A DNA stretch of 64,000 nucleotides from Patellaria atrata CBS 101060 (GCA_010093705.1 MU006091.1:620001-684000); one strand, 5' to 3'; counted from the stretch's first letter, positions 53,720 through 64,000 are shown. Made by a program: numbers and translations. The notes: generated from the letters alone by a model not told the origin.

Positions 53720-55031
53720 ATGAGCAAGGGAGGAGCAATGTCCCAAAATATCCCCGATCTACCGGAGCCAGCACATCCAGAGGTAGATTCAATGTTAGGG
53801 AGAAAATTTGGGAAAGAGGTCGCCAATTATTTCTCAGGTGGATCTACCACTCGTATATATACGCTCCACATGAGTTGAAGTCTAATTGATCCCAGGTTCA
53901 CCCCTCAATCGAGTCTCTTTCCTCCGTACCGACCATACTTTCCTCTCCCGAGCAATCCAACACCCAAGTACCTCCTTTGTCCTCCTAAACAACCTATGGC
54001 CCCTAACAAAATCCCCCACCGAACTGGCCAGAATCTCATATAAAGATGTCGAACCTCTCATAGGCGAAGAACCCTTTTTCCAACCCGAAGAAGACCAGAT
54101 AAAAGGCTTCAACTCCAGCACCTACATCCCCCAACTCCTCTTCCTAGGCCTAGACACCCGAATCCCCGACTCCCTCACCTACAAAGAGTACTACACCGGC
54201 GCCCCCTACTTCGCGCTGGACGTCACACCCAAGGGCACCATCACCGACGCCGCAACGGCCCTCATCGAGACCCTAGAAGCCCGCTCCCTAACCTTCATCT
54301 CTGACCGCATGCTCCTCTCCCTCTCGGCCCACGACGCCGCCATCTACGCCACCGCCCGCCAGGTCATGGACTGGAACCTGCGCAATCCCTTCTGCGCGCA
54401 GTGCGGCTACCCCACGCTCTCCGTAAACGCAGGCTTCAAGCGCGCTTGTCCACCCTCCGACCTCGCCGCCGAGCTTCCCGCCCGCGAACGTCCCCCCTGC
54501 GCCACCCGCACCGGGATATCAAACCTCTCGTTCCCGCGCACCGACCCGACAGTCATCATGGCCGTAGTGTCGGCAGACGGCACAAAAGTCCTCCTCGGCC
54601 GCGGCAAGCGCTACCCGAAATATTGGTACAGCACTCTCGCCGGCTTCCTCGAGCCCGGGGAGTCCGTCGAGGAGGCCGTCCGCCGCGAGGTCTGGGAAGA
54701 GGCGGGCGTCAGGTGCGGTCGCGTTGTCATCCACTCTACGCAGCCATGGCCGTATCCGGCGAACTTGATGATTGGGGCTATCGGACAGGCGGTCCCGGGC
54801 GGGGAGGAGATTCACCTCGGTCATGATCCTGAGCTTGAGGATGCGAAGTGGTATGAATTTGAGGAATTGAGGCAGGCGTTGAGGGTGGGGACGAGTGGGT
54901 TGGGAGAGGAAGCGGGGCAGGAGTATAGGGAGGGGGATTTGAGGTTGCCGCCCAAGACGGCGATTGCGAATCAGTTGCTCACGGCGGTCGTGAATGGGTT
55001 TGTGGGGGTCGAGAGCGAGAGTAAGATTTGA
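53720..55031 (+). CDS. NPY1: NADH pyrophosphatase / NAD-cap decapping Nudix hydrolase (NudC family), 2 exons
   Basis: NYFSG|SPLNRVSFLR via intron 53838-53895. W..RN.FC..CG, FPRTDP.VI, Nudix box GFLEPGESVEEAVRREVWEEAG, QPWPYPANLMIG. Ends in SKI. Confidence 0.94.
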
Positions 55032-55492: not shown

Positions 55493-58134
55493 TTACGAGA
55501 TACCCCAACTCGCAGCCATCCCCGGCACAGGACTGAGCGCCTGCTGCGGCACCTGTGGCATCGGGGGCGGCGGATACCTCCCCATGCTCTCCGGGGGGCT
55601 TGGACTGGAATATCTAAACGTCTGCTGCGGCGGCGGCGGCGAGCGGACCCTCTTAACGTCAGGGGGTTGAGGGTGTCCAGAGAGTCGCGCGATTTGCGGC
55701 ATCGGCGACGTCGGGGGCATCATTGGTAGCTGGTGGACGGGTTGTAGCTGGTAAGCGGGTGTCAGGCCAGGGATCTTGAAATCAGTTTGCGGTGGATATG
55801 GGTACCCTTGCTGTTGTTGTTGTGGCATTAACTGCTGCTGCTGTTGTGGCATTAATTGTTGCGGATTCTGCGGTTGGTTGACGGCGGGCGGGATCTGCAT
55901 TTGCGGTCCGGCCATCGGCATAGGTGACCATTCGACGTGGATTGGTTGGTCTTTGTTGAGGCGCTGGCCGTTGAACCCTAAGTTGTGAGCTATTGTTTAG
56001 GGGGGAAAAAGATGAGAGAAACTTACAGAGCTCGAAGCGTATGTCGGCTGGGCCGATAATGACGCGGACTTGATAGTTAACTTTGAAGTATTTAGGTCCA
56101 GCACTCCAGAAATGTCTGTTCTTGGCTTCGAATTGGCCTTCGTCAATGCTGGAGAGATCGGCTTGGAGCTCGCATATGACGTGGGTGTTTCCGTCTACGT
56201 AGCTAGGGAGATATCGAGGATCGATCTGTGTACAAACGATGCTGGTTGGAAAGCCCTTTCTAGGATCGCTAGGGGCTACTTTTCGGGTGAATTCGTGGAT
56301 TATAGGTGTATCTGATGACACGGGATCTCCTTTTCGGATGAACCATGCGATGGCATTGGCGACGTAGAGCTTTCCGGTCATACTATCTTTTTGAGTAGGG
56401 ACGTTTGCATGATCCGGGTTATTCTTGTCATAAGGGACTTTGCAAATCGTCCCATACGATGCTCTAGCGCACCTCCAACCGATTACTGCATGCCCAACAT
56501 GGAATTTACGGAGACGATCGACGACAATACCTTTGCAAACTGCAAGCTGGGGGTCTGGTGCGATTCGTACCTGCATCGTACGTCCGGACGATTGCATATT
56601 GCCGCCTATTCCGTACCGTTGCCGTAGTTGATTTTGGACATATGCGGAGTTTCCAAGACCACCTGAGAGTACAAGATGGCTCTGTACAGAATTAGTAACT
56701 AACAGTGTGATGGAGGGGAAGTTGAACATACAACTTGCTCCAATGGCATCTTTGTTCTGAGATTATGGAGCTGTGAATCGATCAACCGGAACATCTTCTG
56801 TACTTGCTTATCGAACAATCGCTGCAAATCTTCTCTCGTAAATCTCATTTCGCCATTGTCGATACCCATGGTCCGGTTGAGATAGTTGGTTGACAGATGT
56901 GGTACGGTGATGGAAAACAGTGGTGTATCACTTGGACCGCCAAACTCGCACTTGGTGTTCTGGAATTCTTTGCTCTTCATCATCTCCCATGCGGCACCTT
57001 CTGCACTTATACCTATTGGCATAACTCGGTTTGCTTCCTCTAGACGTGCGCGAACGAATCGTTCAAAATCAAAATCAATGGCTGCTGAACCGATCGTATC
57101 ACCTGAGGAAAGTTAGAGCTGTACAATCAAGTTCCGTTGAGATCAGACATACCAAAAACAACATCAAGCTGTTGGAGAGATATTGAGTTACTTTGAGCAT
57201 TCGTCACACGAAGGACAGAAAGATCCTAATCACATGATTAGTGGAAAGTATTAATATTAGACCAACCTCTTGGGTACGTACTGTGGTTCCACCACCGGCA
57301 TCGCATACTAACAATATGTCTCGTTCCTATACACGATTAGCACCAGCTTTTCAACCCAATTAATCAGGGAACTCACTCTGAATATACCCGAAGCTTCGGT
57401 GGAAGTATGCACTGCGGCAGCTTCTGCTTCAGTAAGTCCAACACTCAGTTTGTGATTGTACAGCTCTCCAAATCCAGCTCTCTCTAGCATCTGTCGAAAG
57501 TTCTCGACAATCGGAGGGCTCCATGTCGTGGGTACACTGGTGATGAACTCTATCCTTGCATTCTGCCATGTTGTACTCTGAAGCTCTGGACCAAGTTTGA
57601 ATTCGATATGTTGATACAGTCGTCGGAGGTAGTCCTCGCACCATCTCTCCACCTCTATGGACGAGTTGGGTGCTTCAGTCGGGCGATCTATTTGTGCCTG
57701 TCGAAGCCTCCCAGGATCTATGAACGTCTTGAACCATTCTCGATATTCCTTATCGTGGCCGGTTTGCTCGTGGACGGTTTCTGAAAGGAAGCCCCAAGAT
57801 GAAGGTGCCTTCGAGCCTCGGGGGTACACCAGGACGGTTGGGACTTTATTCTCGTTCGCTTGCCCTCTTCCTGGCCACTTTTGTATCCATCGTACAGTAC
57901 TGGAACCAATAGAAAGATTTGCGTATGCTACCCCAGTGCCTACAAGACGAAGTAGATGTCAGTTACCTTGCACCTACAATCGCTCGATATATTGAGGTGA
58001 ATTCGTCGGACCGTCGGGTCGGTATTGGCGACCGATGTGTCCCACCAAGAACATCAACGCATGAGTGGGCATTATAACTTACATGTCATGCCAAAGTCAA
58101 CGCCGACAATCATATCAGGTCTTTGGTTCTCCAT
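55493..58134 (-). CDS. Atypical HSPA12-like Hsp70-fold ATPase with Gln/Pro-rich tail, 7 exons
   Basis: Spliced motifs IVGVDFGMT|CTGVA, WPG..NKVPT, SVPTTW, EAEAAA, VCDAGGGTT|DLS, GSAAID..F, LVLSGGLGNSAY, PQLAV.KG. No canonical substrate-binding lid or EEVD/HDEL end. Confidence 0.9.
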
Positions 58135-59016
58135 CTTGAACTGTCTTTGCAGTTACACAACGACTGTACGTCGGTGAGATGTATATGTTTGAGGGATGAA
58201 ATGATGTCAAAGACAGCGACGGATATCCTCTACTACATTCGAACGAGCAGGAATGCGATCCAAGGTGCTTACAAGGCCTGGATGATCTGAAAATCGCCCT
58301 TTGGAGAGCGGGAGTGGGAGCAGGTCTCGATGTCACTGGGCTTTCATGGCTTCCTGCAAAGCCTCTCTTCCCACCCAACTTCATACAGGATTCACTGCCC
58401 ATCATTGGTCTATTTTTATTCAGTAGCGAGTTTCCGTTCCGAAATCTAAGCCTTGCATACCTTCTAGGCCCCATGTCGTACTTTTGTACTGTATTGATTC
58501 CTTCGTTGTTAGAACTACCGTTAAGTTCTAGCACCGCGTTTCATGCTACTTTACTTGCCACGCTTGCATCTTCCCAAAGTCTATACCTTTTCTTCTAGAA
58601 TCCCAGTTTTCCACATATTCTTCATTATCATGCATTAACATGCTAGCGTCAGTCTTTCCTCTACTGTACTGAGAGATTCCGATCAATCCACTGTTTTTAT
58701 TCCGGTCTCTCCGCGTATTAAAACCACAAGTCACCACACATGGTACCGTACGGGTACGTACAGCGTTAGGCATGCCACTGTGGCTGGTCTGATCCAATCA
58801 TGTAGTGTTACAGACTGGTTTAGTTAATGTGCTGAATTGTTAATCCTCGTACTTGCTGGCTGAGTTCAGCTAGCGTAATCCTGCGACGTTCCCAATAATA
58901 TCATCTTAGCTTTCTGAGGAATATTATCAGCCCTTCTTCCGCACCTTACCTTGCGAACTTCTCATGACATCTTAACCTCACCTCTACAGTCAGCGCTTTG
59001 AGAAGAGAACATTAAC

Positions 59017-60314
59017 ATGAATTTCGACATGGAACGTCGACAGGAATCTGGATTTGGATTTCCTACTTCTACCGATTCCAAAGTTGCGGAAGCCCCAAGC
59101 AGCGCGGATATTGGAGTCGGATTTACTCAGACGAGCAGTACTTTACCTGAAGCAACCCTCAGCCGCGACCAAGATATTACTGGGACTGCTTCTACCTTAT
59201 CATCAAGCACCAGTGCACCTACTGGAGCTCTTCAGACCAAGCAACCGGACAGAGACTCGGATAGCGGAGATGGTGTAGCAACGGGTGCTGTCGCTGGCAT
59301 TGCGATAGGGAGTGCCGTAGCAGGCGCCCTCATCGCCTTCCTGATATTCTTCTTCCTCTTCAAGAAGCGAGGCAATAGGAGGGCTGGTAAAGAGGCGGAG
59401 ATTGAGCACTTGAACCGATACAGTCCTGCAATGGCATCCACAGAGAAGACAACCGCATTGAAAGGAAAAGGACTAGAAGCTGGATCTGCTGCATTAGTTG
59501 TTGAGAGCCACCTACCTCAACCGCTTGAAGACGATGCTATTGCTTCAGAGTTAACGAAATTGAAGATCCTGATCAAGAATCACGTCCAGAGCTATTACCA
59601 TCTGTCAGCCGTTGACGCAAGCCAAATTGCTGCCGACACCAGAACCATCGAAGCAGCGCTCCCTGGAACAGCTCTTACGCCATCCAGACTCGCTCAGTTC
59701 ATCGCAAACCCTACTTCGCGATACGCAGCTCTCCGTCTAGCCATCGCTTGGGTTGTTATCTCCAATGTAGATGTCATGAGTCCCCCTGAAACGACACTCT
59801 TACCTCCCGCGGTGGCCAAATGCGTCGAAACCATGACCGGAATGGAAGGGAACGAAGAGGGTAAGTTTTCACTTTACCTGTCACCAACGAGACAAATCCT
59901 AACTGATCCACAGCCCGTATGGCCTTCCTATCAAAATGGTGTTCCATCACCTCTACGTTGATGAAGCCGACCTACAGCCGCAATCCATTCTCCTCTTCCG
60001 ACCCGCGCAATCACAACATTGCCAAAGCAGTTGACGCTCTAGAGGCGCTACTCCGCCCCTACGCATCCGACCGCGTCTCCATATCCGAAAGACGCACAAA
60101 CCTCGAAGAGATCGTACGTCGTGGCGCCAGTTTCGCGTTCCTCCTGTTCAGCCAGCCCAGTTTCTTCACCTTCGAGTGGGAAGAGCAGAACGGGACCGAG
60201 GCCGGCAGTCTCGTCGTCTTCCCCGCGATGCTCCAGGTTGCAGATGAAGCCGCAGTACCGTTGGCGCGACCGAGAGTATTCGGTGACATGGAAGTCGTGC
60301 GGCGGTTAGCTTAA
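59017..60314 (+). CDS. Single-pass membrane protein with Ser/Thr-rich N-terminus and a cytosolic helical + beta domain, 2 exons
   Basis: TM GAVAGIAIGSAVAGALIAFLIFFFLF followed by KKR. LPQPLEDD..LKILIKNHV..YY. Intron 59861-59913. LEEIVRRGASFAFLLFSQPSFFTFEW..LVVFPAML.V.DE. Confidence 0.87.
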
Positions 60315-61702
60315 AAACGATCCTTTTCCCTTTTTATTTTTTTATAATACTTATATGAAATGGAACGGGGTGGGTTAATCGCTCCCCTGGAGTTGAAATT
60401 GTTTCATTTACACCATCTGGGAGGAGTATTTGGGTTCTGCATCGTGAGATGGGTCTATGATAATACTAGATCTTTCAACATCCGACTCGTCTCCCCGTCA
60501 CCTTAGAAACCTCGCAATGCATGCAAATCACTATCGTGAGCAATCTACCCAAAAATTTCAGCCCCCATTATTCACCGGAACATGAAGAGAAACTCAGCTG
60601 CATTTTGGCCCCCACACTCTTTACCTTAGAACCTAACCGGTATGCACAAGCCTGCATGGCGTTTTCCAGGGTCCGGCTATCCCGGAATTGCGGAACATGC
60701 TTAATCGCACCTCTACTCCTCCCTACTTTACAATACAGCCCCATGAACTAATTACCTTACCTACCAACAGCGCCGTGGAAGCACTGCCTCCGTCCTCCGC
60801 AAGATCAGTTAGCTACGACTCATCACACACACACGTTTCAAGTAAAAGATTCACTGATCTGCTGTGGTGAGGTCATTTTCATGCGTAGCACTCGTTGGGA
60901 GCAATCAGAATGTTGCAGGTTGGGGGCCAGAATCCTGCGGTTCGGAAGTGCTAAAGAGGGTACTGAGACGTCGGCGTGGATGGTTTCAGAGCGGGAAAGC
61001 CCGACGATGACTAAGCGGCCCTTTGAATAACTGAGGTTTTTAAAAGAGTATTATGTAGAATATTTTAAAGAATAGCTCTTGAAGTATATATCTCGTCTTT
61101 TCTATAATATTATTATTATTAATATTAGATAGAGCACGAATAGGCTTTCAAACAACACCAAAGACACTAGAAATAAAGCGATATTGACTGAGATAGCTCG
61201 ATTCAAAGCTTCAACAACTCGGGATTTGTGGCACAGATTCCCCTCCCTTTTGAGAAGCCAGAAGCGCTGGAAATATTAAATTCTAGTTGAGCATTTCCTG
61301 TCGAACCAGCAGAGTTCACGATTACCTCATCGACTTTTTTCCTGCAGTGGACTGCTCTGAAACGGAAGCTGAGCTCAGCCTTGATACAGCGAATAGAGAA
61401 TAGTGGATGCAGGAAACTGACTATTCTAAATTAAGAGAAGGCGCGTATGGGCTCCCGTCATTGCTTATATTAGTAGAATACCGTAACTCGGGTTACTCAA
61501 CACCTCAACACCAACGAAAACTTGAAATTAGAAGCAAAGTAAAGTTCAAAGATCTTTACATACTATCTTAACATTTTATTTAGAAATCAAATATTTTGAA
61601 CATGTTCCATAACTGTCTCAAGAAAATCTCCTGTGCCAGCGCCCCCGCTTGTATGTGCACTCTTCGAGTGCTTCAAATTGAACCCGCTTTCCTCTATTTC
61701 CC

Positions 61703-63190
61703 ATGGCTTCCAGACTCACTCCTCCTATCGAACATAGACAAGTCAAAGCAGAATTATCTATCGATTCCTGTATCGGCCAGGCCATTGAACTAAAGCTATA
61801 CAGCCACTTCAAACGACACTCAATCCGGACGATTCTCCTCGATTCCAAGGGAGGAAACGGAAACGTGGACCTAAAAAGGAGGAATCGGAAGAACAACGAC
61901 GGGAGCATGTACAGTCTACGCCCAAGCCAGCTGTACCGTTCATACCCCTTAACAAGAAGGATCTTTCGAAGTTGAACAAACTCAATCGCCAGAAAGGTGC
62001 AGTAGAATCGTTCGAGAACATGACGAACAAGCGACCTTGATCACAATCAAACATTACAGACCCCTCTGAGGGTAACGGCACGACAAACTCCGCACCCTCC
62101 AACAAATCGTCGCTCTCGCTGCACAATTTGATAGAATTGTTGTTCAGCATGATCAAATACCCAAGCATGTCTAGACGTGCTTCGATTCCATAATGGAGTC
62201 TCAAATCTCGGAGGAGGACAAGCATGAGGTTACTTCAATTGCAAAGTCCTTGCGCGATAAATTTGTAGACGTCTTGAAGGCTGCGTGTCGGGAAGATGAC
62301 TCTGTCGAACTGATCTTTCGTGCTCTGGACTTAATGAGCACAACGCTTCTAGATAATACCTATGCTATTCGCCGGAAAGCTGGAAAGATATTAATGCGCG
62401 GACGATTCGGATAGTTAACTCATATTGTCTCAGATTGGAATCTCCTCCTAAAACCCACCGTTCAACACCAACGCTACAGCTCTGTCCTTCTGGCTAAGCG
62501 CCGCAATCAAACGAACGGTGCTCTCGACGAGTCAAGTACGTAGAAACAGCGTCATATGACTCCAGACAGGTCAGCATCGGCTATGCCGCCACCTTAAATC
62601 TCCGCTCAATAAAAACGACGGCAACGTAAAAACCCCTTTTCCGGATATGACGATAAGATTTCGCCATAAAATTGTCGTCGCAAAGTCCAAATCTCTAGGC
62701 GTCCCCGAGCTTCAAGCCAACGACCTTTTGAACGATCTTCAACTCTCTGGAACGCTCATATCATGCCCGATGCATCACGCCATGCTTCTTCGATTCTCAT
62801 CATTCGTCGTTGGAGGTAAATCGTATGGAACTGGCAAGATCCTGTATGAGGCTGAGAACCAAGCCGCGGTCGTTGGAAGCATGATGCTTGTAATGCAGAA
62901 CCAGGTCCGAACTTGTCGGAAGCGGGTCCCTTGAATCACCTCTAGCCTTTTCAATCTACAGTCAAGGCCCTATAATAGAGCTTTGGGTCCATTACAACAT
63001 CTCCATAGACGATGTCCGCTACTAAAACATGAAATTCGTCCAAATTTATCACGCGTCGGCTTTAGATACGGTGATGGCATTCCTGCTGGCAATACTACGT
63101 ATCATGCGATGGGTCAAATCCACAGTTCTGGACAACGTCGCAGAGAAGCTTTCGAAGGTGTGGAAGGAAGCTCAAGATATTGTCACATAA
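61703..63190 (+). pseudogene. Pseudogene of a fungal PD-(D/E)XK nuclease-fold protein (DUF7924-like)
   Basis: Fragments REDDSVELIFRAL..RRKA|DWNLLLKP, VKTPFPDMTI, LRF..FVVGGKSYGTGK.LYEAENQAAV.G, PLAFSI..QGPIIELWVHY, FL..I..IM.W. Internal stops, frameshifts and a mutated intron donor (GAAAGA at 62383; branch GTTAAC; CAG at 62433). Confidence 0.75.
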
Positions 63191-64000
63191 TCACTACACG
63201 CCCCACCGCTTCAGATCCATACTGTACTGTATGTTTATGATACCCGACCTTTTGTAGGATAATTCTAAAAAGCCCTATTATTTGATAAGATGAATATCTT
63301 CGAAGTTATTGGAGGTTAAAAAGCCGTATACGGATTAAAGATATAGCCCTATGGAAAAGGAGTGTTTCTACATCTCGAAAGTAATAATGTTCAAGGTCAA
63401 AACTTTTTGCAGTCCGTTTACTCCCGTCCGTGTATTAAACAAGGTAACCCCGTTTTAAGCCCTCTTACGCAGCCCCTACCTACCTCATTCCATAGTTTTA
63501 TGATCCGTACCTTAGAATCCGTGATACAATTTCGTACTTTGGAATTATAAAGTAATATACCCCTATTTATCTGGATTCTCCTTTCTCCTTTCTCCTTCTA
63601 CTCTCTATACCACAGTACTACTATGGAGCTAGAACCTGGCACAGACGGGAGGAAAATAGTTACAAAAGCCGTTAAAAAAAATTTGGCATCGGATATCCAA
63701 GGTCAGTACAGTCATGTCAAAGGATTTTCATATCCGAGCGTATACGTACAAGAGTCAAAACATACGACGTCAAAGGGGTAGTAAAAGTTCATCTATCAAA
63801 TTAGATATATCATTAGAAGACTATATTCCGGATCTCAGATCCAAGTCGCCTGCTCCTGGCCTCTCTTCTCAAGGCGCCAAATCCAACCTCACGTCGCCAT
63901 CCGCCTGCCCATGAAACCGTTTCGTCAACAGCGATTCTGTGCACGGTAGCGATATAGGGACAGGTTTGATCTCCAGCAAAAGGGGGCGACCCGTTAGTGC

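Follow-up and report, generated by a model that had tools for sequence, protein, structure and literature searches.

A stretch of 64,000 nucleotides (nt) from the Dothideomycete Patellaria atrata CBS 101060 (the window, within which all positions are counted unless a locus is named) carries at 55493..60314 two genes that are transcribed away from one another. Gene A, on the minus strand, encodes an HSPA12-like ATPase of the Hsp70 family, and gene B, on the plus strand, encodes a single-pass membrane protein whose N-terminal part is hypervariable among relatives. Because the two are head-to-head neighbours across three ascomycete classes, they are strongly supported as one working unit, a conserved functional unit of filamentous ascomycetes. 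The reading that is tentatively preferred here is that gene B is a receptor-like sensor coupled to the HSPA12-type ATPase of gene A.

Linkage and co-inheritance of the pair

Thirty-seven metagenome loci (numbered with the prefix L) were gathered by a scan with two conserved gene B peptides (10-sequence subset alignment), and gene B was set to the plus strand in each. In every locus with at least 1746 base pairs (bp) upstream (20 of 20), tblastn with the ATPase found an Hsp70-like gene head-to-head upstream on the minus strand; in the remaining 17 of the 37 the sequence before the domain match is 1285 bp or shorter, too little to show a partner. The start-to-start distance in related loci is about 530-1190 bp. 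Among named assemblies the partners are co-located, on the same contig or with adjacent locus tags, in 30 of 33. Adjacent tags were found in six of eight sequentially tagged assemblies (W97_02172/73, N0V90_008975/76, Q9222_000517/18, Q9223_004642/43, Q9176_005849/48 and L6R40_006162/63), and both partners lie on an equal-sized contig in 24 of 25 assemblies of the Joint Genome Institute (JGI) type. Linked pairs span the Dothideomycetes, Lecanoromycetes and Leotiomycetes, and remoter members of the gene B family occur in Geoglossomycetes and Sordariomycetes.

Patellaria has two such pairs, on contigs of 1828131 and 735242 bp, the second being proteins P0127 and P0011 on the 735242-bp contig. Amylocarpus likewise has two, on contigs of 165623 and 419988 bp, of which the second and more distant comprises P0156 and P0118 on the 419988-bp contig. 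These second pairs are paralogous, and linkage has thus been retained in both copies. Flanking genes, on the other hand, are not conserved between loci: when the open reading frames (ORFs) of window 40-64 kb were compared with the loci, only genes A and B matched, with the exception of one unrelated gene matching L035. Conserved divergent gene pairs with short spacers are enriched for functional relation in fungi, according to PMC2871058, and this supports a step from linkage to shared function, not to contact.

For 47 matched pairs, the trees of genes A and B have 24 of 44 splits in common, against at most 3 in 1000 label shuffles, and the distances within the two families correlate with a Mantel r of 0.94, a value reached in 0 of 999 permutations. 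The partners have therefore been inherited together without swapping. Both genes are under purifying selection: the ratio of nonsynonymous (dN) to synonymous (dS) substitution rates is 0.10-0.15 for the cytosolic domain of gene B (four close pairs), and for the ATPase it is 0.02-0.07 in three pairs and 0.43 in a fourth, the last value probably being inflated by intron read-through. A first-pass annotation of the window had proposed a cognate two-gene module, to be recognized by homologues of gene B sitting next to HSPA12-like genes with agreeing trees; the head-to-head order, the co-location in assemblies, the scrambled flanks and the trees all uphold that proposal.

A hypervariable island at the start of gene B

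In six of six close locus pairs, the part of gene B before the membrane helix has 35-52% amino acid (aa) identity vs 81-97% in the adjacent helix plus cytosolic part. Over the same six pairs dN is 0.36-0.78 in the N-terminal part vs 0.013-0.11 in the helix and cytosolic part, and dS is also raised in the N-terminal part (0.81 vs 0.089 for L009/L012). The contrast recurs in all eight congeneric pairs from the database, in which the ectodomain is 35-54% identical, the rest of gene B 58-87% and the ATPase 79-98%. Profiles of DNA identity show the variable sequence as a sharp-edged island, 33-58% identical, between the ATPase gene on one side and the cytosolic domain on the other, both 90-99% identical. 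Over the comparisons L014:520-975 vs L032, L003:8700-9800 vs L022, L009/L010/L012, L013/L027 and L020/L034, the island is 33-67% identical within flanks of 90-100%, and it takes in 5' flanking sequence as well as the first coding stretch of gene B.

The edges are clearest for L014/L032. Here the cytosolic part is 99% identical, and the island begins some 140 bp before the start codon, takes in the first 105 or so codons and ends abruptly there; the Ser/Thr stalk by the helix lies outside it and is 87-97% identical. Since the island ends before this well-conserved stalk, slippage of repeats is not the whole explanation. Three divergent haplotypes (L009, L010 and L012) come from a single metagenome, Ga0265797.

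The N-terminal modules differ by lineage, being small and beta-rich, Cys-rich, or, in the window, a short Ser/Thr stretch only. A Cys-rich module, as in some lineages, fits an extracellular position. Discrete allele classes common to lineages were not seen in these comparisons; ectodomain identity decays with distance. The simplest description is that an outward-facing module is diversifying rapidly, with balancing selection, cassette exchange and local hypermutation as candidate causes. The first-pass annotation had also raised the idea of a conflict module, and this fares unevenly: the hypervariable ectodomain speaks for it, and vertical inheritance together with strong purifying selection on the intracellular parts speaks against it.

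Gene models and neighbouring sequence

Gene A, an HSPA12-like Hsp70-family ATPase gene, occupies 55493..58134 (minus strand). An in-frame spliced model of seven exons (58134-58083, 57939-57377, 57326-57282, 57225-57153, 57102-56732, 56681-56027 and 55977-55493, the last including the stop) yields 747 aa, with GT..AG at every splice site. Its length equals that of database protein M501DRAFT_1029446 (P0004), to which the 218-aa query exon is 100% identical. Gene B, a single-pass membrane protein gene of 414 aa, occupies 59017..60314 (plus strand) in a two-exon model (59017-59860 and 59914-60314); its 53-nt intron (59861-59913) carries a CTAAC branch site. From ATG to ATG, the divergent spacer measures 882 bp (58135..59016) and is presumed to be a bidirectional promoter. 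The divergent arrangement and the interval first read by eye are thus borne out by both spliced models.

The C-terminal 276 aa of gene B correspond to public protein M501DRAFT_929646 (P0001, 276 aa). The public model begins at an internal Met (59431) and leaves out the N-terminus and the membrane helix, both within 59017-59430. An in-frame, Ser/Thr-rich N-terminus (21-33% Ser+Thr) and the helix are kept in 30 of 30 related loci with enough sequence, and for this reason the long, 414-aa form is the real one. In the public annotation of the Patellaria atrata genome the membrane protein is truncated, and a correction is due.

At the 3' end of gene A the adjoining sequence includes a NUDIX or NADH pyrophosphatase-type exon (54309-55031, plus strand; PF00293, E 3e-19, with a zinc ribbon). 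On the other side, 3' of the pair, window 60400-64000 holds only short broken ORFs, and the guanine-plus-cytosine (GC) content falls to 0.39-0.50. A nuclease pseudogene had been placed beside the pair in the first-pass annotation; it was not confirmed, a Pfam scan of seven ORF pieces at 60752-63911 having returned no family above noise.

The HSPA12-like ATPase

The three nucleotide-binding motifs by which the Hsp70 superfamily is recognized (phosphate-1, phosphate-2 and adenosine) are intact in gene A and stand in the right order, and 56 homologues show little or no variation in them. Phosphate-1 (VGVDFGMTCTG, residues 10-20, 57932..58107, minus strand) is split by intron 1 and aligns to mortalin VVGIDLGTT. 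Phosphate-2 (VCDAGGGTTDLS, residues 212-223, 57217..57308, minus strand) is split by intron 3 and aligns to the mortalin nucleotide-binding domain (NBD); across the 56 homologues D214, G216-G218 and T219-T220 are nearly invariant and D221 is invariant. The adenosine-binding motif (VLSGGLGNSAYVQ, residues 372-384, 56634..56672, minus strand) also aligns to the mortalin NBD and is conserved in homologues. The protein ends in a Pro/Gln-rich, low-complexity tail of 141 aa (26% Pro, 19% Gln; 55496..55918, minus strand), the length of which varies among homologues; these are mostly about 600-700 aa long.

Family assignment by standard models is marginal. Gene A exons scanned singly matched no Pfam family, and the whole protein scores 20.1 bits against PF00012, just below the cut-off of 20.6. 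A profile of the 56 homologues matches the NBD of mortalin and DnaK (E 2.5e-4 to 7e-3) in subdomain II only, and among solved Hsp70s the match is confined to the NBD; the substrate-binding lid, which the first-pass annotation held to be missing, may be absent from gene A. The neighbours of gene A in the ESM Atlas are ascomycete Hsp70/DUF8340 clusters, and a chordate 'Hsp70 member 12A.1' cluster appears at rank 25 with a feature score of 0.96. Structural neighbours in the Atlas that carry PF00012 have template-modelling (TM) scores of 0.63-0.96, with bacterial Hsp70-like proteins at 0.63-0.70. One homologue bears the source label 'Heat shock 70 kDa protein 12A', and the Pfam family DUF8340 is present on part of the fungal clade.

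By motif alignment to the mortalin NBD and conservation among homologues, the assignment in the first-pass annotation, an HSPA12-like Hsp70 with intact ATPase motifs, stands. Gene A resembles animal HSPA12A and HSPA12B in being too diverged for a solid PF00012 match while having the Hsp70 nucleotide-binding motifs; it differs in belonging to a fungal clade, in the DUF8340 found on part of the members, and in a conserved C-terminal region of 180 aa (residues about 425-606). The likeness is drawn from Atlas features and the source label. We know of no report of a conserved genomic partner for animal HSPA12. HspA12A and HspA12B have no helical lid, and the function of HspA12 is presently unknown, according to a 2026 review (PMC13580251); in an older survey of 18 genomes, HSPA12 was found in vertebrates only (PMC2266713).

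A short extra Hsp70-like N-terminal fragment was seen at one locus (L013:9-107, plus strand). It sits at the edge of the contig, by the 3' end of the main ATPase gene and opposite to it in strand.

The membrane protein and its cytosolic domain

Gene B begins with an 89-aa part, presumed extracellular, that is rich in Ser and Thr (31%; 59017..59283, plus strand). A membrane helix, GAVAGIAIGSAVAGALIAFLIFFFLF (residues 90-115), follows and, together with the basic stop-transfer sequence KKRGNRR directly after it, occupies 59284..59382 (plus strand); it was recognized by hydropathy (Kyte-Doolittle 19-mer mean of 2.56), is rich in small residues and GxxxG, and the motif is kept in the family consensus. 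The N-terminus presumably faces outward. The layout read in the first-pass annotation (Ser/Thr-rich N-terminus, one hydrophobic helix, and a cytosolic domain ending FAFLLFSQP...VVFPAM) agrees with the sequence.

The conserved cytosolic globular domain covers residues 158-410 (59488..60299, plus strand). The AlphaFold model, built on a 71-sequence alignment, consists of nine helices and a five-stranded C-terminal sheet, with a predicted local distance difference test (pLDDT) of 93.8 and a predicted TM score (pTM) of 0.90. The most conserved stretch, FAFLLFSQPSFFTFEW...LVVFPAMLQV...PRVF (60132..60299, plus strand), comprises the end of the last helix and the beta subdomain. Within the family F222, Q224 and P225 are nearly invariant and P247 is invariant, and the consensus keeps the helix, an LPQPxED...IKNHVQSYYH block and an LFSQP...VVFPAL...PR.F block.

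Searched exhaustively with HMMER, the cytosolic part matched 846 representative clusters at E<=1e-3, 56 of them at E<=1e-30, and in most of the full-length matches among the 150 listed the match sits C-terminally in a protein of about 350-520 aa. Matches to the domain in the ESM Atlas are only ascomycete hypothetical proteins without a Pfam family. Because Pfam, Protein Data Bank (PDB), Foldseek, structural and Atlas searches all returned no characterised relative, the modelled domain appears to be an uncharacterised fold, and apparently one restricted to ascomycetes.

A likeness of this domain to GrpE or to MIEAP had been suggested by eye, and the searches made here do not support it. Neither GrpE (PF01025) nor MIEAP, whose C-terminal domain (MIEAP/SPATA18) we take to be PF16026, matched the window's exon translations or M501DRAFT_929646 in Pfam at E<=1. 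When 71 gene B members were scanned singly, neither was among the best 25 of 80 weakly matched Pfam families; the 25 shown are mucin-like or membrane-helix models, and no J domain or Tim44-like domain is among them. A profile search of all PDB sequences with gene B matched membrane-helix segments only, with no GrpE, and Foldseek against the PDB gave no match at E<=0.001 (best E 0.31). In an exhaustive structural search of 48161 chains the top match was an unrelated Cascade subunit at Z 5.4; human GrpEL1 (9bls_B) came at rank 49, with Z 3.8 and a root-mean-square deviation (rmsd) of 5.0 over 93 aligned residues, which is within helical noise, since a common arrangement may be all that a Z under about 8 reflects, or under about 13 where the model is helical. 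No BAG, HspBP1/Fes1 or Hsp110 chain was among the best 50 structural matches. We know of no solved MIEAP structure. GrpE has long paired helices. Gene B shares with GrpE and GrpEL1 an order of helices followed by a small beta domain, along with an association with an Hsp70-family ATPase; it differs in being membrane-anchored and in having a multi-helix bundle of about 250 aa. With sequence, profile and fold searches all null, the idea of an exchange factor has nothing beyond 'helices plus a small sheet' to stand on, and no test run lends support to a factor of the GrpE type.

A third gene in relatives

Of 22 loci that extend at least 1368 bp beyond gene B on its downstream side, 20 carry a third conserved gene there. 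In 18 loci it is on the same strand as gene B and starts about 0.5-1.1 kb downstream; in L020/L034 the distance is 2.7 kb and the strand is the opposite one, and in L035 and L037 the gene is missing. Loci with the gene fall within L002-L034, and examples are L024:4664-7102, L007:2623-4851 and L010:11724-14279. In the window the gene was not found (best tblastn E 0.12, best hidden Markov model (HMM) E 0.92).

The product is about 620-810 aa long and consists of a helical N-domain of about 150 aa, a long disordered middle rich in Ser, Pro and Thr, and a conserved basic C-terminal motif (AKRRAAHARRMQLAFG-like). It matched no Pfam family at E<=0.01; one of 14 N-domains matched HeLo at E 0.029. A model of the N-domain (L024:4754-5308) has a pLDDT of 78.5 and matched generic helical bundles only, the best at Z 9.1. 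The match to the coiled-coil (CC) domain of a wheat resistosome, at Z 8.1, is below the meaningful level for helical models, and no HeLo or MLKL chain appeared in the top 50. Comparison of the gene B domain with the third-gene N-domain by profile gave a probability of 0.3%. The N-domain also aligns to the helical lids of Sse1, Ssa1 and BiP (Z 7.8, 6.5 and 6.4), values in the noise range for helical bundles.

Interpretation

Gene B as a receptor-like sensor coupled to the HSPA12-type ATPase is preferred here as a possible, rather than a probable, account; it corresponds to the broader alternative of the first-pass annotation, a receptor switching its cognate Hsp70. The variable ectodomain would sense an external cue, a biotic or non-self cue being likelier than generic wall stress. 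The conserved cytosolic domain would dock or regulate the ATPase at the membrane, and the ATPase would turn the signal into an ATP-dependent remodelling or signalling step on a downstream client. In most lineages that step probably acts on, or with, the product of the third linked gene, which is missing from the window. The binding of the two proteins, the topology in the membrane, the kind of cue and the eventual response are predicted parts of the scheme.

The concept of a specialised Hsp70-family ATPase held on site by a dedicated partner is shared with known anchors of Hsp70s, Tim44-mtHsp70, Sec63-BiP and Zuo1-Ssz1. Gene B differs from Tim44, Sec63 and Zuo1 in that no J domain and no Tim44-like domain was found in it. 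To our knowledge, fungal genomes do not place the genes of these anchors beside those of their Hsp70s. Ssz1/Zuo1 is mentioned in PMC13580251.

Several points weigh against a sensor coupled to the ATPase. The window's own ectodomain is short and Ser/Thr-rich only. No signal peptide is evident in gene B, judged by eye only, and the positive-inside rule and the Cys-rich relatives are the sole basis for placing the N-terminus outside. Contact between the gene A and gene B proteins is something we infer from linkage alone. The partners lie on different contigs in three of the 33 named assemblies (Lentithecium, Letrouitia and Alternaria ventricosa), the unlinked proteins of Alternaria ventricosa and Lentithecium possibly being non-cognates, because further paralogues appear in the lists of both genera. 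Placement on the same contig was taken from equal contig size, which is a proxy. The 37 loci are not independent of one another (L010/L011, L003/L022, L020/L034 and L019/L033 are near-identical), and the pattern scan of metagenomes favours close relatives (32-54% identity). Congruent trees are no proof of co-evolution, since both genes follow the species tree. Lastly, 15 non-redundant spacers scanned with 15 stress and regulatory motifs (heat-shock element, STRE, Rlm1, SCB, MCB, AP-1, CDRE, PacC, UPRE, CCAAT, CRE, Ste12, Tec1 and variants) showed enrichment of none, and a triple heat-shock element occurred in 0 of the 15.

It is fairly unlikely that the two genes are co-regulated neighbours only, sharing a compact bidirectional promoter or chromatin environment while their proteins, without contact, serve the same or different processes. 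The spacer is indeed short, both in the window and in relatives, contact of the proteins is only inferred, and conserved divergent pairs are a known class (PMC2871058). A CTCAGCCTTGCGGCACAGC-like element, partly with a second, inverted copy, is also conserved in the spacers of Pleosporales-type loci (L009:865-895, and the spacers of L010, L016, L019, L028, L002, L003, L004 and L017); its 8-mers are found in 9-11 of the 15 spacers vs at most 6 in shuffles. The spacer as a whole, however, is poorly conserved, and the CTCAGCCTTGCGGCACAGC-like element is not present in that of the window. Linkage has moreover outlasted the scrambling of the flanks across three classes and is found in old paralogous pairs within one genome, and the joining of a third gene in 20 of 22 informative loci looks more like a functional cluster than an accident of promoter sharing.

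Gene B could instead be a wall or membrane stress sensor of the Mid2/Wsc type, with an O-mannosylated Ser/Thr stalk and with the ATPase as a dedicated chaperone or transducer for its tail, and some members are in fact named 'Mid2 domain-containing' or 'cell wall integrity and stress response component' by UniRef or their source. With the fungal sensors Mid2, Wsc1-3, Opy2 and Msb2 gene B shares a Ser/Thr-rich N-terminus, one helix rich in small residues, a basic stop-transfer sequence and a cytosolic signalling part, and the family is vertically inherited at low copy number, as would suit such a sensor. It differs from them in its large, conserved and folded cytosolic domain, its hypervariable N-terminal module, its Hsp70-like partner gene and the lack of an evident signal peptide. 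Mid2 and Wsc1 have short cytosolic tails, quite unlike the domain of gene B, and no Mid2 or WSC family is among the 25 Pfam families shown for the 71 members. The island of L014/L032, moreover, extends over the N-terminal module, which is not repetitive, and some 140 bp of flanking sequence 5' of it, and leaves the stalk 87-97% identical; a strain gauge needs no such diversity. A wall sensor of this kind is therefore an unlikely identity for gene B.

An allorecognition or cell-death locus in the style of heterokaryon incompatibility, in which mismatched ectodomain alleles would trigger death with the helical N-domain of the third gene as executioner, would account for divergent ectodomain cassettes in near-identical flanks, for the three haplotypes from one metagenome, and for dS being raised together with dN in the island. 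The haplotypes could, however, be those of close species or paralogues, and the fall of ectodomain identity with distance leaves no discrete trans-specific allele classes. Among 14 N-domains a single one matched HeLo (E 0.029); no HET, NLR or clear HeLo domain was found, the fold matches of the third gene are generic helical bundles (best Z 9.1) with no HeLo or MLKL in the top 50, and the window is without a third gene. Such a locus is judged quite unlikely.

A role of the cytosolic domain as nucleotide-exchange factor to the neighbouring Hsp70, anchored in the membrane and similar to GrpE or MIEAP, is highly improbable: the domain's gross layout of helices then a small sheet, its tight linkage to an Hsp70-family ATPase gene and the appearance of GrpEL1 in the structural search are set against a Z of 3.8 at rank 49, noise for helical models in a search whose unrelated top match reached 5.4, and against the null results of Foldseek, of Pfam for the window's domain and in the families shown for its relatives, and of a PDB profile search that matched membrane helices only.

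Implications

Taken singly, genes A and B fall into familiar broad classes, one encoding an ATPase of the Hsp70 family and the other a surface protein with a single membrane pass; no description of their locked association, of the new fold or of the hypervariable cassette turned up within the reach of the literature searches. In full-text searches neither the pair, nor DUF8340, nor a membrane partner of fungal HSPA12-like proteins came up, and the only papers returned were general ones on Hsp70s, gene order and allorecognition. The domain family of gene B, with its 846 representative clusters and without a Pfam entry or a solved relative, merits a family definition and a structure. A partner gene locked to a fungal HSPA12-like gene offers a concrete, testable hypothesis for a family whose function is given as unknown in PMC13580251.

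A hypervariable ectodomain set between conserved flanks suggests that it serves recognition, in a way so far undescribed for fungi. Taken at its broadest, the pair would belong to an undescribed surface recognition system of at least three classes of Pezizomycotina, and perhaps of others, running from a diversifying receptor through a new cytosolic fold to an HSPA12-type ATPase, and in most lineages to a third protein; this is rather unlikely. If it is true, it would provide the first mechanistic context for HSPA12-type Hsp70s, as transducers of non-self or biotic sensing, and would fit the unexplained expansions of the HSPA12 subfamily in bivalves.

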